A stretch of 64,000 nucleotides of DNA from a bacterium. GTDB taxonomy: Bacteria > J088 > JAWLBW01. The notes beneath the pieces are model-generated. The model had not been told where the DNA came from. It did no database searches and saw only the letters and a list, made by a program, of their open reading frames with translations. Position numbers and translations under genes: made by a program. The stretch covers positions 1-64,000 of the forward strand of contig JAWLHK010000012.1 of the NCBI GenBank assembly GCA_041690355.1, in the 5' to 3' direction. Positions 2,568 through 55,974 of the stretch are shown here, one piece after another (within the stretch, counting starts at the first letter, position 1; every line of letters starts with the position of its first letter).

Positions 2568-3848
2568 CTACGCGAATTCCTCGGTCTTGGGTCCCCCTCC
2601 AAGGGGAACGGCGGGGGGTGCCTCCAGGAACGCAATCAGCTCGTCACGGCGCTTCGCCGCATCCTCGTAACCCAGTTGCGCCAGACAGCGCGTGTACTTC
2701 GGCTCGAAGACCAGGTAGCTGAACAGCTCCCGCCCCTCGACGGGATTCAGGGAAAGCAGGCGCATGGCGAACCGCTCGAACGCGCTGAAGCTTTCGTCGA
2801 GATAGGGGTTGTGGCGCAAGAGTTCCGCAAAGACCTCAGACAGGTCACGGCTCGGCTGAATGGCCAGGGCCGAGACCCGCCGCAGACCGCGTCCCGCGAT
2901 GTCTTCCCGATCCGTCCCCGCCGCCAGATGCGCGTTGATGCGATCGAGAAAGTCGGAGCCGTAGACCTCGCTCCCCCAGTCGATCAGCTTGTTGATGCGC
3001 GTGAGCTGCTCCATGTCGTAGGTGACGCGATCCTGGAAGATGCTGTCGGCGATGGCCGCCGCGATGCGGCCCACTCCAGGGGGCGTGTCCTTGACGGGAT
3101 GCTGGGCCTTCTCCGGCGCATGCATGCCGATGACGAGCACCCGATCGGCGCCGAGCTGAATGGCCGGGCTGATCGGCGTATTCAGGTGCAGGCCGCCGTC
3201 GGAGTAGAAGCACTCGCGGATCTGCACGGCGGGAAAAACGAATGGGATCGAAGCGCTCGCCGCCACGTGCCGCGGGTCGATGGGCACGTCGTAGACGGGA
3301 TACGGGCCGTGGTACTCCACTTCGGGTCGCTTCTCGAGGAACAGCTCGGTGCGATTGTAGGTCAGGTTCGTGGCGGCGAGCACGATGCCGTCCAGGTGCC
3401 CCGCGGCCAGGTTCCGGCGGATGTTCCCGAAGGGGATCAATTCCTTCAGGTATCCGGGCAGCGGACGCGCGTCAAAGAGCGACACGAAGCCGCGGGCGAG
3501 CGGATTCCGCTGTTTGCCCGGATTGAAGCGGAGAAAGTTGCCGGCGATGCTCGAGGTGGTCTGCAGGATGAATTTGCCGACTTCAGACCAGTCGCGGCGG
3601 TAGATGCGATCGCCGTCGATGTTCTCCCAGAGGCTTCGCAGCATGACCCCCTGCTCGCGGGGGTCGTCGGCGAACGCAGCGAGAAAGGCGGCGTTCACGG
3701 CGCCGACGCTCGTGCCGCAGTAGAGATCGAAGGGGATGGACCGCCACGGCTCGGGGAGCCCCGTGCGCAGATAGTGGACGACGCCGGCCTCGTAGGCGCC
3801 GCGCGCCCCGCCGCCCGACAGCACCAGTGCCAGCCGCCCGCGTTCCAT
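2568..3848 (-). CDS. Patatin-like phospholipase
   Basis: LVLSGGGARGAY, GTSVG nucleophile and DGG motifs. Confidence 0.92.
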   Translation of the reverse strand: MERGRLALVLSGGGARGAYEAGVVHYLRTGLPEPWRSIPFDLYCGTSVGAVNAAFLAAFADDPREQGVMLRSLWENIDGDRIYRRDWSEVGKFILQTTSSIAGNFLRFNPGKQRNPLARGFVSLFDARPLPGYLKELIPFGNIRRNLAAGHLDGIVLAATNLTYNRTELFLEKRPEVEYHGPYPVYDVPIDPRHVAASASIPFVFPAVQIRECFYSDGGLHLNTPISPAIQLGADRVLVIGMHAPEKAQHPVKDTPPGVGRIAAAIADSIFQDRVTYDMEQLTRINKLIDWGSEVYGSDFLDRINAHLAAGTDREDIAGRGLRRVSALAIQPSRDLSEVFAELLRHNPYLDESFSAFERFAMRLLSLNPVEGRELFSYLVFEPKYTRCLAQLGYEDAAKRRDELIAFLEAPPAVPLGGGPKTEEFA

Positions 3849-3873
3849 GCGCCCACATCATACCGTGCGCGAG

Positions 3874-7804: not shown

Positions 7805-8182
7805 CTACCCATACGGCACATACACGAAAGAATACCGATCCGGCGGAAAATCACGCGTGTTCCGCGTAACCAGACGCAGGCCTTCGCGAAGCGCCAGCGC
7901 GGCCTGAAACGCATCGGGCAGTTTCCACTTTTCCCGCGCGCGCAGACGGGCCGCTTCGTCGGCCAGTTCGAAGTCCGCGGCCAGAAACGCGAACGAGCGC
8001 AAGAGATCGCGGATGCGGTCCCGCTCTTTATCGGCTGCGCCGGCCAGCGTCTCGGCGACGGTTATGAACGATACGCAACTGTCGAGGCCGGCTTCGAGAA
8101 GAAAACGGCGCGCGGCCTCAATGCCGTTGAGGTGGTCGATGAGAAGGGTGGAGTCGAGCAGAAAATGCGGGCGGACGCTCAC
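7805..8182 (-). CDS. vapC: PIN-domain toxin VapC
   Basis: LLDSTLLID, TVAETLAG, LPDAFQAALA, LVTRNTRDF; GTG overlaps the antitoxin stop. Confidence 0.9.
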   Translation of the reverse strand: MSVRPHFLLDSTLLIDHLNGIEAARRFLLEAGLDSCVSFITVAETLAGAADKERDRIRDLLRSFAFLAADFELADEAARLRAREKWKLPDAFQAALALREGLRLVTRNTRDFPPDRYSFVYVPYG

Positions 8183-8433
8183 CGGTCCCATTCCCTGCGC
8201 AGCCGGCGCACGGCAGCCACCGAGTCTTCGCCACGCCGGATGCCGAAGGTGGCATCAAGCCGTTTCGCGAGCGTGGCCCGTTCTTCGTGACGGGTGCGAT
8301 ATTCAGCGACCGCTTCGCGCACGATCTCGGCCATGCTCTCCTCCCGCTCGCGGCTCATCTTTTCGAGCCACGCCCGCTCTTCGGCCGGGAGGGTGATCAA
8401 GAGACGAGGCGGCAATGCAGGCTTGCGCGTCAT
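8179..8433 (-). CDS. vapB: CopG/RHH antitoxin (VapB)
   Basis: LLITLPAEERAWLEKMSREREESMAEIVREAV; coupled to the PIN gene. Confidence 0.85.
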   Translation of the reverse strand: MTRKPALPPRLLITLPAEERAWLEKMSREREESMAEIVREAVAEYRTRHEERATLAKRLDATFGIRRGEDSVAAVRRLRREWDR

Positions 8434-8462
8434 GATATCACTTTATCACATTCGTGATATCA
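8433..8462. promoter_or_regulatory. vapBC operator palindrome over the -10
   Basis: TGATATCAC-N12-GTGATATCA; minus-strand TAAAGT 6 nt before ATG. Confidence 0.75.
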
Positions 8463-8688
8463 GTGGACAGGGACAGGGTGCGCGCATGATCAATGTCGAT
8501 GATCAATGCCGAATCCCGAGGCGAGGCCCACACGGTTCGTGGGTTTCAGGTGGAGTCGGTGGCTGCAAGGACGCCCTCACGCTGGCGGCGCTTCCGCTGG
8601 TCGCGCCCGTCGGCTCAGGACGGGAAGTCGCTGCGCGAAGGATCCATGACCGATTGGTAATGCCGCACCGGACAAGTCTGGCGCCGAA

Positions 8689-9660
8689 TCAGCGCTTGAC
8701 CTTGTCGGGGAGCATGTAGGGATAGTCCTTCCCCAGAATGCCGTGCAGGAACCGATCGATCTTGCGGGACCCGAGGTAGATGCGCCAGATGAGCGCGTCT
8801 TCGCGGTAGTAGGCCTGCACCTCGTGCACGCTGAGCGGCGCCTGGGGAAATGCGGACTGCGCGAACCAGTCGTTCGCCGTCTCAATCAGCGAGGGAACGT
8901 CGGCGCTGCGCCCCTCTTTGTAGAAGTTGGCGATCATGTCGATGGCCACCTTGCGCAGGTCGTAGTAGCGCGTGAGCACGTCCTCGAGAAAAAGCATGCG
9001 GATGATCCAAACGAGAAACGAGGGGGCGCTGCGCAGGAACAGCTCCGGATCGAGCTGCTCGACCCCCGCCTTGCGCAGGAGCGGCGTACTCGTGTCGAGG
9101 TAGTCGAGGGGAACGGTCTCCCCGGCATCCAGGCGGGACATCGCGTCCGAAGAACGGAATGCCCAGTTGGAGATCTGGCCGTCGATGGCGATCTCGGCGG
9201 TCCCCTTCTGCGCGGCGTTGTATGCAAACACCCGCTCGGTCTCGGTCAGCGCCGATCGCAGCAGCGCTCCCAGGCCGCGCGCGCTCAGCTGCGGAATGGC
9301 CGCCTGCGCGACCCGTTCGCGCGGCAGGCGCTCCTGGGCGATGTAGACGACCACCTTGCCGCGGTGCCGGCCCAGACGCACCGTGCGGCTCGGTACGACG
9401 CGCACGCCGACGGCGCCGTTCAGAAGATTCACGTATTCCGCATAGAGGGATTCGTAGGCCGCGACCTCGGCGTCATCGAGGAACATGGGCATGCGCTTGA
9501 GGGCGACGTGCGCGGCCTCGGGCGCCTCGACGGCGAGCACGGTGCTGATCTCGCCGTATCCGAGCACGCGCACGGGAATGGCGCTCGAAGCCGGCTGCCG
9601 CAACTGCAGACCCGCTTCGAGGCGCTCGAGGAATTCAGGATCGATCTTCAAGGTATCCAT
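8689..9660 (-). CDS. Hypothetical protein with protein-kinase-like motifs (DUF6206-like)
   Basis: VLGYGEISTV, ALKR, DGQISNW, YLDTSTP; start MDTLK chosen. Confidence 0.65.
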   Translation of the reverse strand: MDTLKIDPEFLERLEAGLQLRQPASSAIPVRVLGYGEISTVLAVEAPEAAHVALKRMPMFLDDAEVAAYESLYAEYVNLLNGAVGVRVVPSRTVRLGRHRGKVVVYIAQERLPRERVAQAAIPQLSARGLGALLRSALTETERVFAYNAAQKGTAEIAIDGQISNWAFRSSDAMSRLDAGETVPLDYLDTSTPLLRKAGVEQLDPELFLRSAPSFLVWIIRMLFLEDVLTRYYDLRKVAIDMIANFYKEGRSADVPSLIETANDWFAQSAFPQAPLSVHEVQAYYREDALIWRIYLGSRKIDRFLHGILGKDYPYMLPDKVKR

Positions 9661-23600: not shown

Positions 23601-24554
23601 CTACGGCATCAGATTCCGCACGCGCACCGGCTCTTCGCCCAGCCAGTCGGGATTCAGCGCGGTGCTGTCGAAGATCGAACTCGTCTTGAACGGCTCCCAG
23701 GTGCCGTCGGCTGCGGGAGTTGCGGTCCGCTGCAAAAGGGCCAGGAGTTCCCCGCCGGCAAGCGGATGGAAGTCCGAAGCGATGCGGCAGGCCTGGTCGA
23801 GAATCTCCATGCTGTCGATCCCGGTAATCACGACCGACGCGGGGAGCGAGAGTGCATAGCGCAGGCATTCCTCGGCCGAGACGACGCCCGACTTCAGGAG
23901 AATGCCGTTCGCGAGCGCCTTCATGCCGAGCACGCCGATGTTCTCGCGCAGCAGCTCGGGGAGTACGAGCCGCTCGAAACTGCGGTAGTGCGCGTCCATG
24001 ACGTTCAGCGGCATCTGCACGGTGTCAAAGCGGAAGCCGTGTTCCCGCGCGACCGCCAGCATGTGCAGGTGGATCTGCGGATCCTTGTGGCCGGTGAACC
24101 CGATGTAGCGCAGCTTTCCCTGCTGTCTGGCCTCGAGAAGTGCGGCGTTCGCCCCCTCGTCATCGAAGACCCGGTGGGGATCGTCGAAGCGGATGACCTC
24201 GTGGTGCTGCACGAGATCGATGCAGTCGACCTGCAGGCGGCGCAGCGACTCCTCGAGCTGGCGCATCGCCTCTTTCCGGCTGCGGCCGTCGATCTTCGTC
24301 ATCACGAAGGCCTTGTCGCGATAGCCGTCGCGTAACGCCTTTCCCACGCGCCGCTCGCTCTCGCCGTCGTTGTAGTCCCAGGAATTATCCAGGAAGTTGA
24401 TGCCGCGGTCCAAAGCCGTCCGCACGATGCGCAGCGCGAGCTCCTCGCTCACCTTCGAGAGCGACAGGTGCCAGCCGCCGACCCCGATGGCCGAGACGAG
24501 TTCGCCGGTGTGGCCGAGTGTTCTGCGGGGAATGTCGTGGGATTCATCAGCCAT
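23601..24554 (-). CDS. Aldo/keto reductase
   Basis: GINFLDNSWDY, FVMTK, SLRRLQVDCIDLVQHH, RYIGFTGH. Confidence 0.92.
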   Translation of the reverse strand: MADESHDIPRRTLGHTGELVSAIGVGGWHLSLSKVSEELALRIVRTALDRGINFLDNSWDYNDGESERRVGKALRDGYRDKAFVMTKIDGRSRKEAMRQLEESLRRLQVDCIDLVQHHEVIRFDDPHRVFDDEGANAALLEARQQGKLRYIGFTGHKDPQIHLHMLAVAREHGFRFDTVQMPLNVMDAHYRSFERLVLPELLRENIGVLGMKALANGILLKSGVVSAEECLRYALSLPASVVITGIDSMEILDQACRIASDFHPLAGGELLALLQRTATPAADGTWEPFKTSSIFDSTALNPDWLGEEPVRVRNLMP

Positions 24555-24703
24555 GATCGGAATCTCCGGTCCGGGGTTCCGCCCAGCTTAGGACGCCTGT
24601 GCACTCAAGTCAATGGTGTCCACAGGACGGTGTTGGGCATCGACCATCGACCATTGATCATTCGCGCAGCGTCTCCATGCGCGGAATGGGGTACCATATC
24701 CGC

Positions 24704-25066
24704 ATGTCTTCCATCATCCTCGGCCTCGTCATCGCCATCATTCTCTTCGCGCTCCTGCGCTTCGCCATGGGTGCGGGGGTGCCGCGCATCAGCGGTCCCG
24801 AGGCCAGGAAGCTGGTCTCCGAGGGCGCCCTGTTCGTTGACGTGCGTAACCCTCCCGAATTGCAGGGCGGCCGTAACCGCGAGGCGAAGAATATTCCGCT
24901 CGGCGATCTGAAAGGCCGCATGGGGGAGCTGGGAAGCAAGGATCGGCCCATCATCCTCTGCTGCGCCTCGGGCACCCGCTCGGCCATGGCCGGCCGCATG
25001 CTCAAGTCGGCCGGGTATACGAAGGTCTACAACCTGGGCCCCTGGCACCGGTATCCTTCTTCCTGA
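24704..25066 (+). CDS. Membrane-anchored rhodanese-like protein
   Basis: N-terminal TM; VDVRNPPE; CASGTRS active loop. Confidence 0.85.
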   Translation: MSSIILGLVIAIILFALLRFAMGAGVPRISGPEARKLVSEGALFVDVRNPPELQGGRNREAKNIPLGDLKGRMGELGSKDRPIILCCASGTRSAMAGRMLKSAGYTKVYNLGPWHRYPSS

Positions 25067-25082
25067 CGGCCCGCCGGTGGAA

Positions 25083-25131
25083 TTGCGTCGCACGGCGCCC
25101 GCTTGGTAAAGTGGTAAATCGGTCTGTTTAT
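25083..25131 (+). promoter_or_regulatory. Promoter plus putative TetR operator (copy 1)
   Basis: TTGCGT-N18-TAAAGT then GTAAATCGGTCTGTTTAT (25114-25131). Confidence 0.6.
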
Positions 25132-25147
25132 CACAAGGATGAGAGCG

Positions 25148-27037
25148 ATGAACCCCACCCGGTGGCTGTGCGCGGCGCTGCTGGTCGGCGCCTGCAGTTC
25201 GCAGCCTGCTGCCCTCCCGCAGGATGGGCCGACCTTCGTCTACGGCGATCCCGACCGTATGATCCCGTTTCCCTCGGACCGGTTCCTCGCCCACGATGGC
25301 GGCGCGCGCCCCGAGACGCATGAGCGCGCAACCGGCTATCACATCGACGTCGAGCCGTTTCGCGCGCGCGACCCCATCTTCGCGAAGGTGCCCGAAGTGG
25401 CCGACGGCCTCGCGGGGCTCGACGGCTTCGGCACTTCGTCGGAAATCATCCTTGGCCTGACTTTCGCCGCCGACGTCACCGCGCTCACCGATGCCGCCAC
25501 TGCGTTCGAGCGGTCGGTTGCCGACGATTCGCCCCTCTGGCTGATGAGCATCGATCCGGCTTCGCCTCGGGCGGGAGAGCCGCTCCCGTTCGTCGCGTTC
25601 TTCGAGCCCGACGGCAACACCCTGCGCATCCGGCCGTGGCGGCCGCTGCAGGCGTCGAGCCGGCATGCCCTGATCGTGCGTCCCGGCCTGCGCGACGTGC
25701 TCGGCCGCCCCTTCGTTTCACCCCCCGGCTTCCAGGACGCGATGAAGCATCCCGAAGCGCACGGCCTCGAAGGAGACGGCTACGCGCAGCTGCGGCAGGT
25801 CTTCCCGGAACCCATCGTTTTCGCGATCACTTTCCGCACGGCATCCATCACGCCGAAGCTGCGCAGCCTGGCGGATGAAGTCCGCGCCGCGAGCCCGTCG
25901 GCCATCACCTTCGTCACGCGCGCGCCGGCAACCTGGCAGCCCCATCTGGCGACGATCGTCGAAGGATGGTTCACGCACCGCCTGTATCTCACGCCGCAGA
26001 ACATGCTGGGCCTGACGGTCACGGCCGAAGAAAAGATTCCCTTCACGCTCGCCCTGCCGCTGACGACGGCGACGCTCCGCGAGCCGTTTCCCATCGTGCT
26101 GGCGCAGCATGGTTTCGGCGGTTATCGGCAGTGGATCTTCGACCGCACGGCCGATGCCTTCGCGGCGCAGGGGATGGCGACCGTCGCCATCGATGCGCCG
26201 AACCACGGCGCCCGCGGACCCGGCGACGGCCTGGCCGGAGATTTCCTCACGGGCGTTCGCGAAACATTCGGCATCTGGACCAACGGCGACTCCATCGTCA
26301 TCCGCAGCTGGCACTTCCGCGACCTGCTGCGGCAACAGGTGCTCACCCACCTGCAGCTGCTCCTGGCGCTGGAGGCGTGGAACGGGGATGTCACGCGCGC
26401 CACGAATGCGCCGGGTCCGGATCTCGACGTTTCGGAAGCGGGCTACATCGGGCATTCCATGGGCGCCGTGATGGGCGGCGTGAGCGGCGCCGTGCTCCCC
26501 GAACTCCGTCGGATTCTCCTGAACGTCGGGGGCGGCCGCATCTCCGACGTGTTCGCCGGCAACGAGTTCATCGATCGCCTGGCCGTGGTCGCGCTGCGGC
26601 CACGAGGGGTGAGCGTGGGCGAAGGGTGGCGCATGATCAGCATGGCGCAGGCCACGATCGACCCGGGCGATCCGCTCAACTACGTCGCGCACATTGCGGG
26701 AGAACCGTTCGACGGGCAGGAACCGCGGCCGGTGCTCATGCAGAACGTCCTGCACGATTTTCTCGTGCCCAACCATGCCTCGTATGCGCTTGCCCGCGCG
26801 ATGGACGCCGTCCATGTGGGCCCCCTCGATCTCGAGGTTGCCGATCTGGAACGGCAGCGCATCCCCCCCGGCGGGCTCGAGGGAAATGACCTCACGGCCT
26901 TCGCCTACTTCGACGAAGTGCGCATCGGGGGAGAGCGGTTCCGCGCCGACCACAGCAACCACATCGGCAGCAGCTCGGGCCTCGAACAGGCCGCGCCGTT
27001 TCTCCGTTCGGGCGTCGTGATCGAGCCGGCCCCCTGA
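25148..27037 (+). CDS. Lipoprotein alpha/beta-hydrolase (extracellular lipase-like)
   Basis: LLVGAC lipobox; PFPSD, LDGFG; QHGFGG, IDAPNHG, GHSMG, DPGDPLNY, DFLVPN. Confidence 0.8.
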   Translation: MNPTRWLCAALLVGACSSQPAALPQDGPTFVYGDPDRMIPFPSDRFLAHDGGARPETHERATGYHIDVEPFRARDPIFAKVPEVADGLAGLDGFGTSSEIILGLTFAADVTALTDAATAFERSVADDSPLWLMSIDPASPRAGEPLPFVAFFEPDGNTLRIRPWRPLQASSRHALIVRPGLRDVLGRPFVSPPGFQDAMKHPEAHGLEGDGYAQLRQVFPEPIVFAITFRTASITPKLRSLADEVRAASPSAITFVTRAPATWQPHLATIVEGWFTHRLYLTPQNMLGLTVTAEEKIPFTLALPLTTATLREPFPIVLAQHGFGGYRQWIFDRTADAFAAQGMATVAIDAPNHGARGPGDGLAGDFLTGVRETFGIWTNGDSIVIRSWHFRDLLRQQVLTHLQLLLALEAWNGDVTRATNAPGPDLDVSEAGYIGHSMGAVMGGVSGAVLPELRRILLNVGGGRISDVFAGNEFIDRLAVVALRPRGVSVGEGWRMISMAQATIDPGDPLNYVAHIAGEPFDGQEPRPVLMQNVLHDFLVPNHASYALARAMDAVHVGPLDLEVADLERQRIPPGGLEGNDLTAFAYFDEVRIGGERFRADHSNHIGSSSGLEQAAPFLRSGVVIEPAP

Positions 27038-27057
27038 ACTGCGGAAGCTGCGGAACG

Positions 27058-27714
27058 TTACGCCTTGAGCAGCGCCGCGAGCACCTTGCCGAGCGGCTCC
27101 TTCAAGTCGGCGAGGTGCTCGCCTTCGCCGGCGCCGATGGCGGTCGTGACCATCGAGCTGACCCCGTGCAGCAGAACCTTGACGGCGGTGCGCTGGTCGG
27201 GCCCGTGTCCGAAAATGCCTACGTGCTCGTGCAAGACGGCGACGGCGATGTCGACGAACGCTTCCAGCGACTCCTGGCGCTGGCGCACGGCCTGCGGACC
27301 CGCGGCATAGACTTCGACGAGCAGCGCCTTCGCGTAGGCCGGCTGGCTCGCCAGAATGTCGAGGTAGGAGCCGAGCACCCATTCGAGTTTCTGAAACGGC
27401 GAAGTCCCCTTGCCCTTGCCGGGGCCTCCGGCGAACCGCTCCTGAATTCCCATGGCCAGCACGGCGGCGACCTGCCGGGCGGCCAGTTCGTAGGCGGCGC
27501 GAAAGCACTCGGCCTTGTCCTCGAACAGGGCATAGAAGGTCGCGCGCGAAACCCCCGAACGGCTCACCACGTCGGCCACCGACGTACGCGCATACCCTTT
27601 CTCGGCGACGGCGTCGATCATGGCGATCAGCAGACGCTCACGCTGCGACTGCTCAACCTGATCGCGCGTCAGGTCGTGCGGGCCGCGCGGCAGCGGACGG
27701 GGTGTGAGGTTCAT
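27058..27714 (-). CDS. TetR/AcrR family transcriptional regulator
   Basis: QRERLL...KGYARTSVADVVSRSGVSRATFYALFEDK. Confidence 0.93.
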   Translation of the reverse strand: MNLTPRPLPRGPHDLTRDQVEQSQRERLLIAMIDAVAEKGYARTSVADVVSRSGVSRATFYALFEDKAECFRAAYELAARQVAAVLAMGIQERFAGGPGKGKGTSPFQKLEWVLGSYLDILASQPAYAKALLVEVYAAGPQAVRQRQESLEAFVDIAVAVLHEHVGIFGHGPDQRTAVKVLLHGVSSMVTTAIGAGEGEHLADLKEPLGKVLAALLKA

Positions 27715-27809
27715 CGGCGTAGAAGTCTCGCGGGTTCCAAGGTAACCAGTATATAGACCCGCCGCCGTCGGGTCGAGCCTGGGAGACGGCGGGCCTGCAT
27801 GGTTTCGCT

Positions 27810-27894
27810 GTAAATTCTGGTGTTTATCGTCCATGGGAGAAAAGTGTGGACAAGGCGGCGCCGGAGGGGTAGTGTGATGAACGGTTCTGTTTAT
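27810..27894. promoter_or_regulatory. Two putative TetR operators and the promoter of the hydrolase-ligase operon
   Basis: GTAAATTCTGGTGTTTAT (27810-27827); TGGACA-N17-TAGTGT (27847-27875); ATGAACGGTTCTGTTTAT (27877-27894). Confidence 0.62.
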
Positions 27895-27917
27895 GACTTA
27901 TCCGTAAGGCGGTGCGC

Positions 27918-28760
27918 GTGGAAACCTTCCAGTTCCGGAATTACGAAATCAAGTTCGTTCGCAAGGGGTCCGGTTCTCCGATCGTCTTCCTGCACAACGG
28001 CGGCACGTCGCACGCGATCTGGAAAGAAGTGATCCCCCGTCTGGCCGATTCGCACACCTGCTACGCCCTCGATCTGCTGGGCTACGGCGCCTCGTCGAAG
28101 TCCGCCGACGATTACTCGCTCGAGACCTATGTCGAGATCCTCGGCGCGTTCATCGATCACCACCAGCTTGCCCCCGTCACGCTCGTTGGCAACTGCATGG
28201 GAAGCGCGATGTCGATCCTGTATGCGCAGCGCAACCCGGGCAACGTGCGTTCGCTGATTCTCGTGAATCCGCTCACCTACAGGACGTTCGTCCACGGCCG
28301 GCTCGGTTCGTTTCTGCGTCTGCGGCGGTCGGCTCCCGGGTTCTCACGGGCCATCTACCGGACGATCGGCGGATTCAAACTGAACCGTCTCGTCAGCGAA
28401 CAGTCGCTGCGCATGCAGTTCGGCGCCATCGGGCGCCAGAAGCACCTGGAGAAGAGCGACGATCTGTGCGCGTGCTTCACGGGAGAGGGGCAGTTCAACT
28501 CGCTTCTCGGCGCGCTCGATGATCTCGTGCATTACGACCAGTTCGACACGCTGGCCAAGGCGCCCGGTTTTCCGCCCGTCTGCTCGATCTGGGGCCTGGA
28601 GAACCAGATTCTCTCGGCAAGGGCCGGCGAGGAGCTGAACGAGACGCTGCAGCCCGTGCGCGCCGAACGGCTCGACGGCTGCGGGCACCTGGCCATGCTG
28701 GAAAAACCCGACGAAGTCGCCCGAATCATCCGCGAGTTTACCGTGGAGGCGAATCCATGA
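27918..28760 (+). CDS. Alpha/beta-fold hydrolase with Cys at the nucleophile elbow
   Basis: FLHNGG, DLLGYGAS, GNCMG, GCGHLAMLEKP. Confidence 0.88.
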   Translation: METFQFRNYEIKFVRKGSGSPIVFLHNGGTSHAIWKEVIPRLADSHTCYALDLLGYGASSKSADDYSLETYVEILGAFIDHHQLAPVTLVGNCMGSAMSILYAQRNPGNVRSLILVNPLTYRTFVHGRLGSFLRLRRSAPGFSRAIYRTIGGFKLNRLVSEQSLRMQFGAIGRQKHLEKSDDLCACFTGEGQFNSLLGALDDLVHYDQFDTLAKAPGFPPVCSIWGLENQILSARAGEELNETLQPVRAERLDGCGHLAMLEKPDEVARIIREFTVEANP

Positions 28761-30460
28761 GCACCCTGCTGCAGGACGAAGTTTTCAACCTCGCCGAGAT
28801 CGTTCGCGAGGTCGCGAAAAAGTATCCGACGCGCACGGCCGTCGTTGAGCCCGACGGGCGCGGACCCGACGGAAAGCGCAGGTACCGCACTTATACCTAC
28901 GAGCAGATGTCGGCCGATGCCGAGTCGGTGGCGCCGGGCCTGCGTGAAATGGGCATCGCCGAGCACACGCGCATCGTGTGCATGACCCCGCCGAGCTATG
29001 AGTCATGCGTGCTCGGACTCGCTCTGCAGCGCGTCGGCGCCATGACGCTGTGGATCGATCCGTCGGTCGGGTACCGCAATGTCGGTGAACGCCTGCGCCG
29101 GATCAAGCCCGAGGCCTTTGCCGGCATTCCGCTGGCGCACCTCGGCCGCATTGCGTTCGCCTGGGGGCCGCGGTTCCCCAAAAAGTCGATCGTCGTCGGC
29201 GGCAGCTTCCCGGGCGCCCGCACGCTGGCTTCGCTCAAGCGCAAGGCCCCCGAGGTTCCTCCGCGGCCGGCGGTCAACCCCGACGATCCGGCGACGGTCC
29301 TCTACACCACGGGGAGTACGGGACCGGCCAAGCCGGCGCTGTATCTGCACCGCAACTATGTGCACCTGTTTCGCACGGTCCATCACAGCTGGCGTTTTAC
29401 CGACGACGACATCCCGGTAGACATGGCCGTTTTTCCCGCCTTCTTCTTCATTCCCATCAGCGCGGGCGGAACGATGGTGGTGCCGCCGATCAACTTTCCC
29501 CGTGAGACGCCGGCCAAGGCGAGGCCCGAGGCCCTGCTCGAGGTCATCAACGACTGCGGAGTGAATTCGTGCTTTGCCTCGCCCGTACTGCTGGAAAACA
29601 TGGCCCGGCATGCGGTGAAGCACAGGATCACGACGCCGACGTTCAAGCGCGTCATCGGCGGCGGCGCGCCCATCTTCGCATCGGTCAAACGGGCGCTGCT
29701 CGAGATGATGGGTCCTGAAGGAGAGGTGTTCTCCAATTACGGCGCGACCGAGGCCCTGCCGTCGACAGAGATGGGCGCGCAGGAGGCGCTTTCAGAAACC
29801 TTCGATCTCACCGACAAGGGCGCCGGCATCTGCGTGGGCCGTCCGTTTCCCGGCGTCGAGCTGAAGATCGTGCGCATCGTCGACGGGCCGCTCACGTCCA
29901 TCCAGGATGCCGAGCCGTTGCCCCGGGGAGAGATCGGCGAGATCCTCGTGCGCGGTCCTCACATCAGCCCCGGATACTTTCTGGATCCGGAGAGCGACCG
30001 CAAGAACAAGGTGCGCGACGAGAGCGGCCAGTGGCATCGTCTGGGCGACGCCGGTTACCTCGACGCCAAAGACCGCCTCTGGGTGTGCGGCCGCGTCGGC
30101 CAGCGCGTGAAAGCCGCCGAGGGCAATGTATTCTCCCTGCTCTGCGAACCGATTTTCGACGCCCACCCCGCCGTGCATCGGAGCGGACTCGTCGGCGTGG
30201 CGCGGAGCAACGGCGAAGTTCCCGTCATCTGCGTCCAATTGCGCACGGGTGAGGAAGCGCGCACGGCGGATATCCGGCGGGATCTGCTCGCCCTCGCGCA
30301 GCAGCACGACGTGACTCGACTCGTGCGTCACGTACTGTTCGTGGACAAGCTGCCGACCGACCCCCGCCACAACTCCAAGATCGAACGGCCGAAGCTGGCG
30401 ATGTGGGCGACGAAGCAGCTGCAGAGCGAAGCAGTCTGGCGGGCGGCCGCGGGCGAGTAG
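28757..30460 (+). CDS. Adenylate-forming enzyme, OleC (olefin beta-lactone synthetase)-like
   Basis: YTTGSTGPAK, YGATEALP, GICVGRP, WHRLGDAGYLD...LWVCGR, LPTDPRHNSKI. Confidence 0.8.
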   Translation: MSTLLQDEVFNLAEIVREVAKKYPTRTAVVEPDGRGPDGKRRYRTYTYEQMSADAESVAPGLREMGIAEHTRIVCMTPPSYESCVLGLALQRVGAMTLWIDPSVGYRNVGERLRRIKPEAFAGIPLAHLGRIAFAWGPRFPKKSIVVGGSFPGARTLASLKRKAPEVPPRPAVNPDDPATVLYTTGSTGPAKPALYLHRNYVHLFRTVHHSWRFTDDDIPVDMAVFPAFFFIPISAGGTMVVPPINFPRETPAKARPEALLEVINDCGVNSCFASPVLLENMARHAVKHRITTPTFKRVIGGGAPIFASVKRALLEMMGPEGEVFSNYGATEALPSTEMGAQEALSETFDLTDKGAGICVGRPFPGVELKIVRIVDGPLTSIQDAEPLPRGEIGEILVRGPHISPGYFLDPESDRKNKVRDESGQWHRLGDAGYLDAKDRLWVCGRVGQRVKAAEGNVFSLLCEPIFDAHPAVHRSGLVGVARSNGEVPVICVQLRTGEEARTADIRRDLLALAQQHDVTRLVRHVLFVDKLPTDPRHNSKIERPKLAMWATKQLQSEAVWRAAAGE

Positions 30461-30503
30461 ACAGGGTTTCGGGTCGGCTACCCGAAGCCGGCAGAAGTTG
30501 TGC

Positions 30504-31022
30504 CTACAGGTACCGCGCGGCGGCCATGAACGACGTCGCGAACACGAGCAGCACGGCGCCGAGCACCGTAGCGCGATAGAGGCGCATCTGCAGCCGCTGC
30601 ATCTCGACCAGCGTCTCGGGCGCGGGCGGACCCCCGGCGGCCTGCGCCGATGCGGCGAGGGCGCCGAACTTCCGGGCGGTCGGCGCGTTCACGAGCTGGC
30701 CCAGCAGCGCGGTCGCGATGGCGAAGCCGCCGCCCAGGCTCCATCCGATGCCGACGCCGGTCGTGAACCACGCGCCGGTAAATCCGCTCGACGCCCACCA
30801 GAACAGCGCCAAACCGGTGAGCAGCGTGATGAGCACGGCGCCGTTCATGAAGCGCGGAAGTCGGCGCACCTGAACGATCTCCTTCATCACCTGTCCCCCC
30901 GCAGGACCCGCCGCACGGGTGGCGGGAAGGAGAAAGGCGGCATTGTAGAGAACGGCGCCGAGCCAGAAGCCCCCGGCGACGACGTGAAAGGAACGAAGGA
31001 CTGCCAGCACGAGCGGATGCAT
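30504..31022 (-). CDS. Hypothetical 4-TM membrane protein
   Basis: Four hydrophobic helices; HVVAGGFWLG. Confidence 0.75.
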   Translation of the reverse strand: MHPLVLAVLRSFHVVAGGFWLGAVLYNAAFLLPATRAAGPAGGQVMKEIVQVRRLPRFMNGAVLITLLTGLALFWWASSGFTGAWFTTGVGIGWSLGGGFAIATALLGQLVNAPTARKFGALAASAQAAGGPPAPETLVEMQRLQMRLYRATVLGAVLLVFATSFMAAARYL

Positions 31023-45981: not shown

Positions 45982-47070
45982 TCAGGCGATGATCCCCTTC
46001 AGGCTCTCGCGCACGGCGGCGCCCATGGCCTTGCAGCCGATGACTTTCTCGCCGGGCGCGGCGATGTCGCCGGTACGCAGACCGCGCGCCAGGACGTCAT
46101 CGACCGCCTTCTCGATGGCGTCGGCCGCCGCCCCCTGATCGAAGCTGTAGCGCAGCATCATGGCCGCCGAGAGAATCGTGGCGATCGGGTTGGCCTTGTC
46201 CTGGCCTGCGATGTCGGGCGCCGAGCCATGCACCGGCTCGTACATGCCGACCTTGCCCCCCAGGCTCGCGCTCGGGAGCATCCCGATGCTGCCGGTCAGC
46301 ATGGCGGCTTCGTCCGAGAGGATGTCGCCGAAGAGATTCGTGGTCACGACCACGTCGAACTGGCGCGGGTTGCGCACGAGCTGCATGGCGCAATTGTCCA
46401 CGTACATGTGGTGGAGCTCGATATCCGTATATTCCGCATCGCGGATGCCCTGGACGACGCGGCGCCACAGCTCGGTGGTTTCGAGCACGTTGGCCTTGTC
46501 GATGGAGTGCACCTTGCGGCCGCGCTTGCGGGCGATGTCGAAGGCGACGCGGGCAATACGATCAATCTCGGGGGTCGTGTAGACGAGCGTGTTCACGCCG
46601 CGCTCGGTGCCGTCGGGGAGCTTCTCGACCCCCTTGGGCTTTCCGAAGTAGATCCCGCCCGTCAGCTCGCGAACGACCATGATGTCGATGCCCGACACGA
46701 CCTCGGGTTTGAGCGTCGACGCGGCCACGAGGGCGGGATAAACCACGGCGGGGCGCAGATTGGCGAACAGCCCCAGCTCGGCGCGCAGGGCCAGAAGAGC
46801 GCGCTCGGGCCGTACCGCGTAGTCGAGCCCTTCCCACTTGGGGCCGCCGACGGCGCCGAGCAGGACGGCGTCACTGGCCTTGGCAAGCGCCAGCGTCGCG
46901 TCGGCCATCGGCACGCCGTGTTTATCGATGGCGCAGCCACCCACCAGATCATGCGTGAATTCGAACTGCAGATCGAACTTCGGGGCGATCATCTCGAGAA
47001 CGGCGACCGCCTCGCCCATGACTTCGGGCCCGATACCGTCGCCGGCGAATACTGCAACCTTGTACTTCAT
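45982..47070 (-). CDS. leuB: 3-isopropylmalate dehydrogenase
   Basis: [46 protein letters not shown]. Confidence 0.98.
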
Positions 47071-54704: not shown

Positions 54705-55132
54705 GCGCGTTCTCCCTGGAATTTGTTGGCGTTCGGCTTGTATCCGCGGTACCCGATGGCGTCCATCACCCGCTCGTCACGGTAGAAAGGGAGCAGGAGC
54801 ACGGTGGAAAGGAGAATGTGGAAGCCGCGCAGCGCGTAGACGGAACTGTGACGCACGCGATCGAACACCCGGTTGCGCTTTTCGAGGGGCAGCCGCGAGA
54901 AACGCCCGAAGGCGCCGGCGTAGATCCACCCGAGGTATTCCAGCAGGAAGAGGATCACGCGAAGCAGCAGGCGCACCTCGAACGGTACCGAGGGGAGGTA
55001 TTCCCGGTTGACCCAGCCGAGGTAATCCACGTCGGCATGGCCGAGCTCGAAGGCCCCCCCGGGGGGAAGGATGCACTCGGCTGCTGCCTTCAGCGTGCGT
55101 GTCTCGCGGTTGTTAAGCGGTTTGATTTTCAT
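54701..55132 (-). CDS. Gluconate 2-dehydrogenase subunit 3-like partner protein
   Basis: TLKAAAECILP, FSRLPLEKR, FY...IGYRG; coupled to the GMC gene. Confidence 0.75.
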   Translation of the reverse strand: MKIKPLNNRETRTLKAAAECILPPGGAFELGHADVDYLGWVNREYLPSVPFEVRLLLRVILFLLEYLGWIYAGAFGRFSRLPLEKRNRVFDRVRHSSVYALRGFHILLSTVLLLPFYRDERVMDAIGYRGYKPNANKFQGERA

Positions 55133-55880
55133 CGGGCTCTCGCTCAAAAAAGCGTTCCATACCGAGGGTCATGTACTCGCGGGCCAGCCGGGCGGCGCGC
55201 ACGCCCTTTCGCGCGCGCACGGCCGCGAGGATGTCACGGTGGTACCGGCGGATTTCGCGCGGCTCGCCGGTCAGCAGGGCGAACATGCCGGCATTGTCGA
55301 GGTACGTCTGGCGCACGCTGTTGAGCAGCAGGCGGATGACGATGTTGCCGGACGCGTCGGCCAGCGTCTCGAAGAATTCGAAATCCTTGCGCTGCATGGC
55401 GGCATGATCGTCGAGCAGCCCGGCCTCTTCGTCGAGAATGCGCGTGAGCGCGTCGAGGTGCGCGGGCCGGGCGCGGTCGGCCGCGAGACGCACGAGCTCG
55501 GTGCCCACGAGGGCGCGAAACTCCAGTGCGCTGCGCAGGATCTCGGCCTGGGGGAGCTCGGTCTCGAAAAGGTACTTGAGGATCTGCAGACCGGCGCCGG
55601 TCATGAAGTCCTTGACCAGCGAGCCCTCGCCGTGCCGGGTTTCGATGAGGTCTTCGCGCTCGAGCACGCGCAGAGCTTCGCGCAGGCTGACGCGGGTGAC
55701 GCCCAGCTGCTGCGAGAGTTCGCGCTCGGGAGGCAGGAATTCTCCGGGCTTCCACGTACCGGCCAGAATACCCGTGCGCAGCTGGTCGACGATGCGCTCC
55801 GAGAGCCGCCGCTTGTCGATGGGCTGCACGGGGGGCTGGGCTGCGGGGGCGGAACTCGGGGTGGTCGGGCGATCTCTCAT
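55113..55880 (-). CDS. FadR/GntR family transcriptional regulator
   Basis: LPPERELSQQLGVTRVSLREAL...RHGEG; FCD domain ASGN. Confidence 0.93.
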   Translation of the reverse strand: MRDRPTTPSSAPAAQPPVQPIDKRRLSERIVDQLRTGILAGTWKPGEFLPPERELSQQLGVTRVSLREALRVLEREDLIETRHGEGSLVKDFMTGAGLQILKYLFETELPQAEILRSALEFRALVGTELVRLAADRARPAHLDALTRILDEEAGLLDDHAAMQRKDFEFFETLADASGNIVIRLLLNSVRQTYLDNAGMFALLTGEPREIRRYHRDILAAVRARKGVRAARLAREYMTLGMERFFEREPDENQTA

Positions 55881-55917
55881 TGGCACGTCTCGCTGGAATC
55901 CGGCTCGACCCACCAGG

Positions 55918-55974
55918 GTGGACTAGTGGCCTAGTGGTTAGACCACTTTACCACTGGGGGCGTGCGGGGGTCAA
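55918..55974 (-). promoter_or_regulatory. FadR-type operator and promoter
   Basis: AGTGGT-TAG-ACCACT palindrome (55933-55947) among GTGG/CCAC half-sites; TTGACC-N18-TAAAGT on minus strand. Confidence 0.75.

Follow-up and report, generated by a model that had tools for sequence, protein, structure and literature searches.

A candidate TetR regulon linking a lipoprotein hydrolase with a Cys-hydrolase and an OleC-like ligase

The olefin pathway enzymes OleB and OleC, a beta-lactone decarboxylase and a beta-lactone synthetase, are an adjacent and sometimes fused pair of a dehalogenase-like protein and an adenylate-forming enzyme. OleB is assigned to haloalkane dehalogenase subfamily III in excerpts of PMC10503415, and oleBC fusions are recorded in excerpts of PMC7064751. 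According to excerpts of PMC3656444, VolA of Vibrio cholerae is a surface lipoprotein lysophospholipase, an extracytoplasmic alpha/beta hydrolase that is coexpressed with FadL and frees fatty acids for uptake and activation with FadL and FadD. Lipid metabolism is also controlled by the TetR-family repressors PsrA of Pseudomonas and FadR/YsiA of Bacillus, which act on dyads that overlie promoters of genes for lipid metabolism as well as the promoter of their own gene. The PsrA operator is given as C/GAAAC-N2-4-GTTTG/C in excerpts of PMC13104628.

We compared these systems with a locus in a 64,000-nt stretch of bacterial DNA (the window; G+C 65.4%), for which an earlier note had proposed a TetR regulon of four genes sharing an 18-bp operator. 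The features of the locus are listed in Table 1. The locus is probably a real TetR regulon that scavenges esterified lipids. Its regulatory logic is familiar, with a lipid-type TetR that represses a secreted lipase together with enzymes for uptake or activation; the enzyme pair that it regulates is unfamiliar.

Table 1. Coordinates of the features of the locus within the window
Feature	Position	Strand	Basis
Lipoprotein-gene promoter (predicted): TTGCGT, 17 nt, TAAAGT	25084..25112	+	By eye; in 42-nt repeat D1
Operator O1 (candidate), GTAAATCGGTCTGTTTAT	25114..25131	.	Motif and repeat search
Lipoprotein serine hydrolase, 629 aa	25148..27037	+	ATG 25148; in-frame ATG also at 25139
TetR-family repressor, 218 aa	27058..27714	-	TetR_N
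tetR promoter-like site: TCGACC, 17 nt, TATACT	27748..27776	-	Consensus promoter scan
Operator O2 (candidate), GTAAATTCTGGTGTTTAT	27810..27827	.	Motif search
Hydrolase-ligase operon promoter (predicted): TGGACA, 17 nt, TAGTGT	27847..27875	+	By eye; in repeat D1
Operator O3 (candidate), ATGAACGGTTCTGTTTAT	27877..27894	.	Motif and repeat search
Cytoplasmic alpha/beta-fold enzyme, 282 aa	27912..28760	+	Abhydrolase_1, 101.8 bits
Adenylate-forming ligase, 567 aa	28757..30460	+	AMP-binding, 171.6 bits

All three 18-bp sites were found on the plus strand at the positions where the earlier note had placed them, and counting by hand confirmed that they are imperfect palindromes, with 5, 5 and 6 mirrored pairs of 9. 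The first base of O1 and of O3 is 1 nt past a -10 hexamer, and their last bases lie 16 nt upstream of ATG 25148 and 17 nt upstream of GTG 27912, respectively. This placement, also part of the original proposal, is visible by eye (TAAAGT at 25107-25112 and TAGTGT at 27870-27875, each followed by one G and the site), but both promoters fell below the thresholds of a consensus promoter scan. The sole call of that scan in 24900-30700 was the minus-strand TCGACC-17-TATACT, which fits tetR. O2 lies in the space that separates the divergent promoters, at a distance of 33 nt from the -35 hexamer of tetR and 19 nt from that of the hydrolase gene, and overlaps no predicted core promoter. A motif-free repeat search of 24900-28000 returned as its largest direct repeat a 42-nt block (D1; 25093-25134 versus 27856-27897, 71% identical) that takes in the promoter spacer and -10 hexamer, followed by a single G and the site itself. 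A search of 24500-31000 against Rfam for an RNA element gave no matches at E <= 1.

We asked how often such sites occur in the window. The degenerate pattern of the earlier note had 3 matches against 0.02 expected, a circular comparison, as the pattern was derived from the same sites. The pattern ATAAACA-N4-TGTTTAT, which mirrors the invariant right half of the sites and is less circular, gave 3 matches (<=3 mismatches) against 0.11 expected, and 3 matches were reached in 0 of 100 shuffles. The word TGTTTAT occurs four times in the window, counting both strands; three of these occurrences are O1 to O3, which fall in two intergenic regions of jointly ~270 nt. The fourth, at 46919, was rejected as an operator: it lies inside the coding region of an isopropylmalate/isocitrate dehydrogenase (Iso_dh) and was taken as chance. 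The whole motif could be a chance likeness of AT-rich words in a GC-rich genome, where such words cluster in intergenic DNA, and the first pattern test was circular, but the concentration of three of four TGTTTAT words in two intergenic regions and the recovery of the 42-nt block with no motif as input argue against it, as do a one-mismatch copy of the motif at a second locus and an excess of a related motif in Myxococcota, both described below. We regard chance likeness as extremely improbable.

The protein encoded divergently from the operon belongs to the TetR family (PF00440, TetR_N, 41.9 bits versus a cut-off of 24). Its only full-length matches are weak ones to Bacillus-type FadR (NF053878, 26.7 bits; PDB 3whb and 1vi0, E 1.6e-5), and although the NF053878 match covers the full length, the score is far from the 200 bits required, placing the protein outside Bacillus-type FadR. 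Like PsrA and FadR, it has dyads over target promoters and by its own gene (O1 to O3), and the AAAC/GTTT half-site is common to the window operators and the PsrA site as given in excerpts of PMC13104628. Unlike these repressors, it shows a 6-bp spacer (5 bp in a Myxococcota clade), similarity to FadR of only 26.7 versus 200 bits, and regulated genes that are not those of beta-oxidation. A total of 567 homologs of the TetR were found. TetR and ligase homologs occur together on 7 other contigs, including short ones of 4205, 4426 and 5861 bp, where sharing was read from identical bp totals of the contigs of the matches and is thus a proxy for linkage.

Twenty-five loci were compared with the window, and only one of them, L005, carries an ortholog of the TetR (57% identity). 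At 7870-7887 of L005 the sequence ATAGACAATAATGTTTAT has one mismatch to ATAAACA-N4-TGTTTAT; it sits in the divergent intergenic region between tetR and a gene for a secreted PF00756 esterase, which is followed by the hydrolase and ligase genes. The site had been noticed by eye before the mirrored pattern was written; when the locus was simulated with a Markov model, 1 of 300 runs produced a match as good, and for the 270-nt intergenic region simulated by itself the figure was 3 of 20000. With a weight matrix derived from O1 to O3, the site came joint sixth within L005 (8.2 bits); it stood out only when the symmetrised consensus was used. The exact idealised palindrome was present in 0 of the 25 loci. 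The recurrence of the motif at the sole ortholog locus suggests that the sites behave as TetR-type operators, as had been proposed. Another TGTTTAT word, at 8924 of L003, was rejected as an operator because it lies inside an acyltransferase gene.

In Myxococcota, a related palindrome stands upstream of the hydrolase-ligase operon; it keeps the TAAAC/GTTTA half-site, but its spacer has one base fewer. Loci with another TetR clade (c4; 25% identical to the window clade and encoded nearby in 8 Myxococcota loci) have the form GGTA(T/A)AC-N5-GT(T/A)TACC. The spacer thus follows the TetR clade, being N6 in the window and L005 and N5 with the other clade. The N5 motif had 40 matches in 286 kb versus 0.55 in simulations, and matches lie 11-30 nt upstream of the starts of hydrolase, PF00756 esterase, DUF4185, LGFP, Big_5, TetR and PAE-like esterase genes.

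The motif might instead be bound by a different regulator, or be a promoter-proximal element that two co-evolved promoters have in common. The position of O2 outside both core promoters would suit this explanation, as would the presence of the c4 TetR in 8 Myxococcota loci with the related palindrome in more, but many of the TetR-less loci are short contigs. The size of the dyad is typical for a TetR dimer, the motif flanks tetR in the window, L005, L009, L023 and L025, and the spacer length shifts with the TetR clade. We therefore consider it very unlikely that the motif is anything other than an operator of the adjacent TetR.

In the product of the lipoprotein gene, the lipobox reads LVGAC and the serine motif G-H-S437-M-G; His602 is invariant, and a stretch of the N-terminal region is Big_5-like. 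An alignment of 17 sequences (A2; 16 homologs and the window protein) showed an invariant lipobox Cys16, G-[HQ]-S437-M-G and His602, the lipoprotein signal peptide and serine-hydrolase triad expected of a VolA/Pla-1 protein. Pfam gave no match for the lipoprotein, and its hydrolase core matched the VolA/Pla-1 model (TIGR03502) over residues 316-446 only, at 72.8 bits, far under the 383.9 bits that mark membership. Distant look-alikes in the Atlas carry Lipase_bact_N and Big_5. The locus resembles the VolA system, in excerpts of PMC3656444, in having an extracytoplasmic lipoprotein hydrolase, and differs from it in that no FadL gene is adjacent in the window and the partners are the Cys-hydrolase and the ligase. 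Lipoprotein and ligase homologs share only 3 other contigs, on 2 of which the TetR also occurs (by the identical-bp proxy). None of the 25 loci yielded a lipoprotein homolog, and the four-gene composition thus fails as a conserved unit; other loci have different lipoprotein esterases under the related operator, and the lipoprotein is the variable part. Big_5 proteins of the loci were considered as relatives of the window lipoprotein and rejected (NCBIfam, 0 matches for 6 of 6; hhalign, 37 columns at probability 0.7).

What is conserved across the loci is the pairing of the Cys-hydrolase with the ligase. The hydrolase gene is immediately 5' of the ligase gene in 22 of the 22 loci with upstream DNA. 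The two reading frames overlap by 4 nt at the stop and start (ATGA) in the window. Elsewhere they likewise overlap or abut: of 21 loci, 15 show the 4-nt overlap and 3 an overlap of 1 nt. Fusions exist in both orders, ligase-hydrolase (P0316, P0318) and hydrolase-ligase (P0340, P0364), with the Cys kept in all four. Ligase homologs that are 58-78% identical come from several phyla.

The hydrolase carries the signature residues Asn29 (HNGG), Cys95 (G-N-C-M-G), Asn231 and His259. The earlier note was right about this Cys nucleophile, which all 22 aligned orthologs share, and about the lipoprotein identity of the secreted protein, which the lipobox bears out. The Cys-His-Asn signature, versus the usual Ser-His-Asp, is present in 131 of the best 150 representatives of 50%-identity clusters. 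The top phmmer matches are haloalkane dehalogenases (E 4.6e-19), and the predicted structure (pLDDT 89.0) has as its top Foldseek match the subfamily III haloalkane dehalogenase 8ooh (E 1.1e-18, TM 0.71). The likeness to DhaA and DhmeA extends to the region of an HGNPTS-like N-terminal motif. The fold is thus dehalogenase-like alpha/beta with a helical cap, as in OleB and subfamily III, but the position aligned with the nucleophile Asp of DhaA-type enzymes at the elbow is Cys95. Since this defining Asp is replaced by Cys, the hydrolase is excluded as a dehalogenase; judged by its sequence, it is a haloalkane-dehalogenase/OleB-like protein with an Asp-to-Cys exchange. An Atlas search with the hydrolase returned generic alpha/beta hydrolase clusters only.

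The ligase belongs to NCBIfam NF006754 (PRK09274, 'fatty acid CoA ligase family protein'), scoring 554.3 bits versus 478 and aligning residues 8-557 with profile positions 3-553 of 555; the family name is an annotation label, and a literature search found no paper that uses the accession. The next named models are those of OleC, at 392 and 359 bits, whereas the top long-chain-fatty-acid--CoA ligase model (PRK06187) reached 173 bits. The OleC-like character reported earlier is real as a resemblance, with alignment end to end on both OleC models, but the protein is not an OleC member (NF045786, 391.9 versus 900 bits; NF045785, 359.2 versus 850) and falls instead within PRK09274.

These properties raise the possibility of a biosynthetic OleB/OleC-type module. 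The ligase fits both OleC models over its full length, the top matches of the hydrolase are haloalkane dehalogenases including the subfamily to which excerpts of PMC10503415 assign OleB, and fusions are found here as excerpts of PMC7064751 record them for oleBC. A module of this type is nevertheless unlikely: the OleA thiolase and the OleD reductase are absent within ~10 kb either side in the window and from the recurrent neighbours in the 25 loci, the OleC cut-offs are missed widely, and the dehalogenase nucleophile Asp is Cys in every aligned ortholog, with Asn in place of the usual acid. The pair would further differ from OleB/OleC in having secreted esterases under a predicted TetR operator, and its recurrent neighbours, which are secreted esterases and glycan-degrading enzymes, suit breakdown over synthesis. 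On these comparisons, the pair represents a large uncharacterised family related to OleB/OleC, with another nucleophile and without OleA or OleD.

An ordinary fatty-acid feeder, in which a FadD-like acyl-CoA synthetase supplies beta-oxidation or membrane synthesis, a generic esterase or thioesterase assists and a FadR-like TetR governs both, would require no unusual chemistry. It would agree with the NCBIfam assignment of the ligase, whose nearest solved structures are CoA ligases, with the FadR-only full-length matches of the TetR and with a VolA-like lipoprotein, which suits fatty-acid scavenging. We consider it unlikely, as beta-oxidation genes are missing next to the pair both in the window and in the annotated loci, the OleC models outscore PRK06187 by far, and the invariant Cys-His-Asn signature together with the fusions in both orders argues for a joint reaction and not two housekeeping steps.

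The explanation that we favour, with modest confidence, is a TetR-repressed lipoprotein esterase and a coupled hydrolase-ligase pair that handle lipid-derived acids. The repressor, distantly like fatty-acid- or acyl-CoA-sensing TetR proteins, would bind as a dimer to the 18-bp operators, each with an ATAAAC half-site and a 6-bp spacer. O1 and O3 cover the expected transcription start, and bound repressor would therefore block initiation; O2, between the divergent promoters of tetR and the operon, probably aids repression or auto-regulation. A lipid-derived ligand would free the DNA from the repressor. Outside the cytoplasm, the lipoprotein, as a serine esterase or lipase, would then cleave an external ester and set free its carboxylic acid, which is probably a long-chain fatty acid of the hydroxy or the ordinary type. 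Of the translationally coupled cytoplasmic pair, the ligase may adenylate the freed acid, after which the Cys-His partner may either bind the activated acyl as a thioester or open a beta-lactone that the ligase has formed; in either case the product would be converted further. Of this picture, the sites and where they lie, the recurrence of the motif beside the TetR ortholog, the close hydrolase-ligase coupling and the repeated association with secreted esterases are observed, whereas binding by this TetR, the ligand, the substrate and the reaction of the pair are inferred. The statement in the earlier note that no described pathway has this composition holds for the pair, of which a search of the openly readable literature found no description, but VolA with FadL, the PsrA and FadR-type TetR regulons and OleB/OleC are close analogues. 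Should beta-hydroxy or mycolic-type acids turn out to be the substrates of the pair, this would be a new fate for such lipids and a new catabolic use of beta-lactone or thioester chemistry. The operator offers a handle for defining the genes that are co-regulated with the pair.

The Myxococcota loci provide such a set. PF00756 esterases are present in 4 and PAE-like esterases in 7 of the 25 loci, most of them with a lipobox, according to gene calls from a crude GC3 filter that makes errors, including antisense and merged ORFs. Some of the Myxococcota esterases have the Corynebacterium glutamicum mycoloyltransferase PS1 as their best solved relative (E 1.6e-22), and in one PS1-like esterase the C-terminal module gives a match to the D-arabinan-binding domain of an endo-D-arabinanase that degrades arabinogalactan (E 1.7e-21). 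DUF4185 (GH183) and LGFP-repeat proteins also share the operator with the pair in these loci. By its sequence relatives, this co-regulated set points to the breakdown of mycolyl-arabinogalactan envelopes. The lipoproteins that have the operator in common with the Myxococcota pair are homologs of envelope enzymes of the mycolate-bearing Corynebacteriales. We tentatively suggest, with low confidence, that the pair is the intracellular arm of prey-envelope salvage, with 2-alkyl-3-hydroxy (mycolic-type) or other 3-hydroxy fatty acids from foreign envelopes as substrates. If so, the action of an OleC-like enzyme on free mycolic acids, together with a Cys partner that forms a thioester or opens a beta-lactone, would constitute a first catabolic route for these acids, and the regulon of the window would represent a version of it whose lipoprotein esterase differs. 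A sequence cluster of genes from the loci (c0), considered as ligase paralogs, was rejected as such, as its members encode PAE-like esterases.

Three candidate 18-bp operators (O1, O2 and O3), predicted sites of the adjacent TetR, were located on the plus strand exactly where the earlier note had placed them (Table). The window has a G+C content of 65.4%, and TGTTTAT occurs four times on both strands, three of the occurrences being O1 to O3; the fourth (46919), inside an isocitrate/isopropylmalate dehydrogenase gene, was discarded. The pattern of the earlier note matched the window three times (0.02 expected), a circular test because the pattern was built from the same sites. When the invariant right half was reflected to give a mirrored consensus, ATAAACA-N4-TGTTTAT, and up to three mismatches were allowed, O1 to O3 alone were matched, with 0.11 matches expected and three matches reached in 0 of 100 shuffles. 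The largest direct repeat returned by a motif-free search of 24900-28000 was a 42-nt block (25093-25134 and 27856-27897, 71% identity), in both copies of which a GC-rich spacer leads into a -10-like hexamer (TAAAGT or TAGTGT) that a single G separates from the 18-bp site; the start codon lies 16 or 17 nt after the end of the site. The consensus promoter scan made no call for the lipoprotein-gene or hydrolase-ligase promoters, and Rfam gave no match at E ≤ 1 in 24500-31000. The site of an analogous regulator, PsrA (C/GAAAC-N2-4-GTTTG/C; PMC13104628), shares its half-site with the window operators.

Coordinates of features in the window and in the related loci. N5 denotes the palindrome with a 5-bp spacer between the TAAAC and GTTTA half-sites; L-numbers denote genome loci found with the ligase.
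Feature	Sequence	Position	Strand	Remark
Lipoprotein, 629 aa	window	25148-27037	+	lipobox LVGAC
TetR protein	window	27058-27714	minus	
Alpha/beta-fold hydrolase	window	27912-28760	+	
Adenylate-forming ligase	window	28757-30460	+	start overlaps hydrolase by ATGA
O1	window	25114-25131	+	
O2	window	27810-27827	+	between tetR promoter and TGGACA hexamer of operon promoter
O3	window	27877-27894	+	
Promoter-like TCGACC-17-TATACT	window	27776..27748	minus	sole consensus-scan call; fits tetR
N5 before hydrolase gene	L007	9091-9109		
N5 before hydrolase gene	L008	1409		
N5 before hydrolase gene	L009	9080, 9101		tandem, 21 nt apart
N5 before hydrolase gene	L012	8956		
N5 before hydrolase gene	L015	8966		
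N5 before hydrolase gene	L016	749		
N5 before hydrolase gene	L017	8350		
N5 before hydrolase gene	L018	5040		
N5 before hydrolase gene	L020	4677		
N5 before hydrolase gene	L022	4802		
N5 before hydrolase gene	L025	9062, 9083		tandem, 21 nt apart
N5, extra	L007	1003, 3497, 6560, 9014		
N5, extra	L008	10722, 12006		
N5, extra	L012	1859		
N5, extra	L015	6820		
N5, extra	L020	8927		
N5, extra	L022	1214		
N5, extra	L023	7620		

No Pfam domain was found in the lipoprotein, and its residues 316-446 matched the VolA/Pla-1 phospholipase model below threshold (72.8 bits versus a cut-off of 383.9). Only 16 homologs were present in a set of 5.8 billion proteins, all of about 625 aa, with the lipobox Cys, G-[HQ]-S-M-G and a C-terminal His invariant. 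Matches of their profile to the PDB were limited to short stretches of small esterases. The Atlas look-alikes were unnamed proteins, most frequent in Myxococcota, and farther clusters carried Lipase_bact_N, Big_5 and PAF-AH_p_II. A 16-nt inverted repeat (27077-27122, 94% complementary, 14-nt loop) lies within the 3' end of tetR, near the convergent end of the lipoprotein gene, and could be the terminator of the lipoprotein transcript. The only matches of TetR that extended through the ligand-binding domain were to Bacillus-type FadR and were weak; TetR scored 26.7 bits against NF053878 (cut-off 200) and E 1.6e-5 against PDB 3whb and 1vi0. The genes that flank these four on either side have unrelated housekeeping functions and include no thiolase and no OleD-type reductase. 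Elsewhere in the window are a patatin-like phospholipase gene (2568-3857, minus strand) and, adjoining a GMC oxidoreductase, a gene for a GntR regulator with an FCD/FadR_C domain (55113-55922, minus strand); the motif is absent near both.

The hydrolase and ligase form a conserved pair. The ligase search gave 1707 matches among 8000 candidates scored, the best 120 of which were 58-78% identical, with sources named as Deltaproteobacteria, Bdellovibrionota, Chitinophagales, Geothermincolia, Isosphaeraceae and a Mycobacterium. A genome scan with the ligase yielded 25 loci, mostly from Myxococcota MAGs (56-71% identity). A hydrolase ortholog lay directly upstream of the ligase in all 22 loci having upstream DNA, the other three (L001, L014 and L024) being cut at or inside the ligase. 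Of 21 loci, 15 showed a 4-nt overlap between the hydrolase stop and the ligase start, and three a 1-nt overlap; for the remaining three the start-choosing heuristic took a later start despite an ATGA or TGATG at the hydrolase stop.

Among 1.84 billion representatives searched, 86 relatives of the hydrolase were found at E ≤ 1e-30. The nucleophile elbow G-N-C-M-G and the histidine loop G-H-L were present in 22 of 22 aligned orthologs (L004, which begins after the elbow, was excluded). In the best 150 representatives, the position of Cys95 was occupied by Cys (131), Ser (10), Asp (2) or Gly (1), with 6 not aligned. The window hydrolase has Asn29 in the oxyanion region, Cys95, Asn231 at the acid position, and His259. 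Both Asn residues (Asn29 within HNGG) are shared by the Cys forms, whereas most Ser forms have Gly in the oxyanion region and half of them have Asp at the acid position; this putative Cys-His-Asn signature is reminiscent of papain-type triads. The closest solved relatives are haloalkane dehalogenases, with Cys95 aligned to the nucleophile Asp. The AlphaFold model (pLDDT 89.0, pTM 0.90) was nearest to DhmeA, a subfamily III dehalogenase (8ooh, E 1.1e-18, TM 0.71), with HsaD, ABHD6 and a phospholipase A almost as near.

The pair is OleB/OleC-like in ancestry and in occasional fusion. OleB is described as a putative member of dehalogenase subfamily III (PMC10503415), and fused OleB/OleC forms occur (PMC7064751), as do fusions of the present pair: four of the best 150 hydrolase representatives are fused to a PRK09274-type ligase, two in each domain order (P0316 and P0318, ligase-hydrolase; P0340 and P0364, hydrolase-ligase), with the Cys kept in all. 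Yet the defining features of both families are lacking. The ligase, which had been described as OleC-like, matches the two OleC models over their whole length but misses their cut-offs (391.9 versus 900 and 359.2 versus 850 bits), and it passes NCBIfam PRK09274 (554.3 bits, cut-off 478); OleA and OleD do not accompany the pair, either nearby in the window or among its recurrent neighbours in the loci, and the nucleophile is Cys, unlike the Asp of dehalogenases. Since the nucleophile is a thiol, we infer that the hydrolase might form a thioester acyl-enzyme from an acyl-adenylate or open a beta-lactone made by the ligase.

Conservation did not extend to the four-gene neighbourhood put forward in the earlier note: the lipoprotein homolog was found in 0 of the 25 loci, for which gene calls were crude, and a TetR ortholog (57% identical) only in L005. 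We also used a longest contig of identical length as a proxy for co-location of protein homologs. By this proxy, TetR and ligase homologs share seven other contigs (4205, 4426, 5861, 23050, 33015, 79482 and 142769 bp, the last being the L005 contig), and lipoprotein and ligase homologs share three (23050, 33015 and 39243 bp), two of which also carry TetR.

In L005, a 270-nt AT-rich gap separates tetR (minus strand) from the gene for a secreted PF00756 esterase, behind which come the hydrolase and then the ligase. Across the 21.7 kb of this locus the mirrored consensus was matched only once, by ATAGACAATAATGTTTAT (7870-7887, one mismatch), just past a TTGACG hexamer. Simulation produced an equally good match in 1 of 300 L005 loci and, for the intergenic region by itself, in 3 of 20000 runs; these figures are for a consensus written after the L005 site had been seen and for the only TetR-ortholog locus among the 25. 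With a matrix from the three window sites, the L005 site ranked only joint sixth within L005.

In the Myxococcota loci, TTGAC(A/C) precedes the hydrolase gene, and in most of them the 19-nt palindrome GGTA(T/A)AC-N5-GT(T/A)TACC follows within 2-3 nt and ends 5-10 nt before the hydrolase start codon, suggesting that the transcripts are leaderless or have a very short leader. The palindrome arms were invariant in an alignment of 11 Myxococcota upstream regions. The half-site core TAAAC/GTTTA is common to this palindrome and the window sites, and the Myxococcota spacer is one base shorter. Eight of these Myxococcota loci encode a TetR that belongs to a different clade and has 25% identity to the window TetR over 166 residues, so spacer length tracks TetR clade. 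The N5 palindrome (≤3 mismatches) matched 40 times in 286 kb of 21 loci, compared with 0.55 in simulations. The genes that follow a copy after 11-30 nt encode the hydrolase, TetR, PF00756 and PAE-like esterases, and DUF4185, LGFP-repeat and Big_5 proteins, and most of the proteins encoded behind them have lipoboxes. The extra copies precede, at the same 11-30 nt, lipoprotein genes (DUF4185, LGFP-repeat, Big_5, PF00756 and PAE-like) and a gene for a caspase-domain protein. Together, the copies define a predicted local regulon.

A secreted esterase adjoins the pair in 11 of the 25 loci (PF00756 in 4, PAE-like in 7). The recurring set is thus a predicted repressor operator, at least one exported esterase and the hydrolase-ligase pair; the window lipoprotein is one form that the exported member takes. 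Among solved structures, PS1, a mycoloyltransferase of Corynebacterium glutamicum, is closest to the L005 esterase (6sx4, E 1.6e-22), with Cmt1 and antigen 85 proteins lower in the match list. A lipoprotein esterase in L007 (7556-8995, minus strand) joins a PS1-like domain to a C-terminal module. This module matches EndoMA1, an endo-D-arabinanase, over residues 296-477 of the latter (8ic1, E 1.7e-21), a region described as a putative carbohydrate-binding module with D-arabinan tetrasaccharide bound in the crystal (PMC10509167). Such an architecture would be expected of a mycolyl-arabinogalactan esterase. DUF4185 is the GH183 D-arabinanase family (PMC10115798, PMC10509167). In L009, L014 and L025, a PAE-like (PF03283) esterase gene directly follows the ligase (at about 11858-12870 in L009 and L025) and is followed by an LGFP + Peptidase_C39_2 gene.

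In the mechanism that we propose, a TetR dimer would cover the transcription start regions by binding O1 and O3, would also bind O2, which lies between the two divergent promoters, and would be released by a lipid-derived ligand. The lipoprotein esterase would then cleave an external ester, and the acid set free would be converted inside the cell by the ligase together with the Cys-hydrolase; VolA with FadL (PMC3656444) is an analogue of such salvage. We consider the regulon part probable, the salvage reading tentative, and the whole mechanism, regulon and salvage together, slightly favoured. That the pair serves as a salvage route for mycolic-type acids seems unlikely. It is conceivable because beta-lactone synthetases close di-alkyl beta-hydroxy acids (10.1101/856955), which have the mycolic-acid scaffold, and because there are PS1-like esterases, a putative arabinan-binding module, and an operator common to the DUF4185 and LGFP-repeat proteins. 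No account of such a route came up in a literature search that paired mycolic acid and esterase with myxobacteria and predation. In L003 (a Smithellaceae MAG), the gene before the hydrolase encodes a PF01553 (PlsC-type) acyltransferase (8241-9143), and the 0-nt gap between its stop and the hydrolase ATG suggests one operon; this arrangement gives a hint of a role in lipid remodelling among anaerobes that are not predators.
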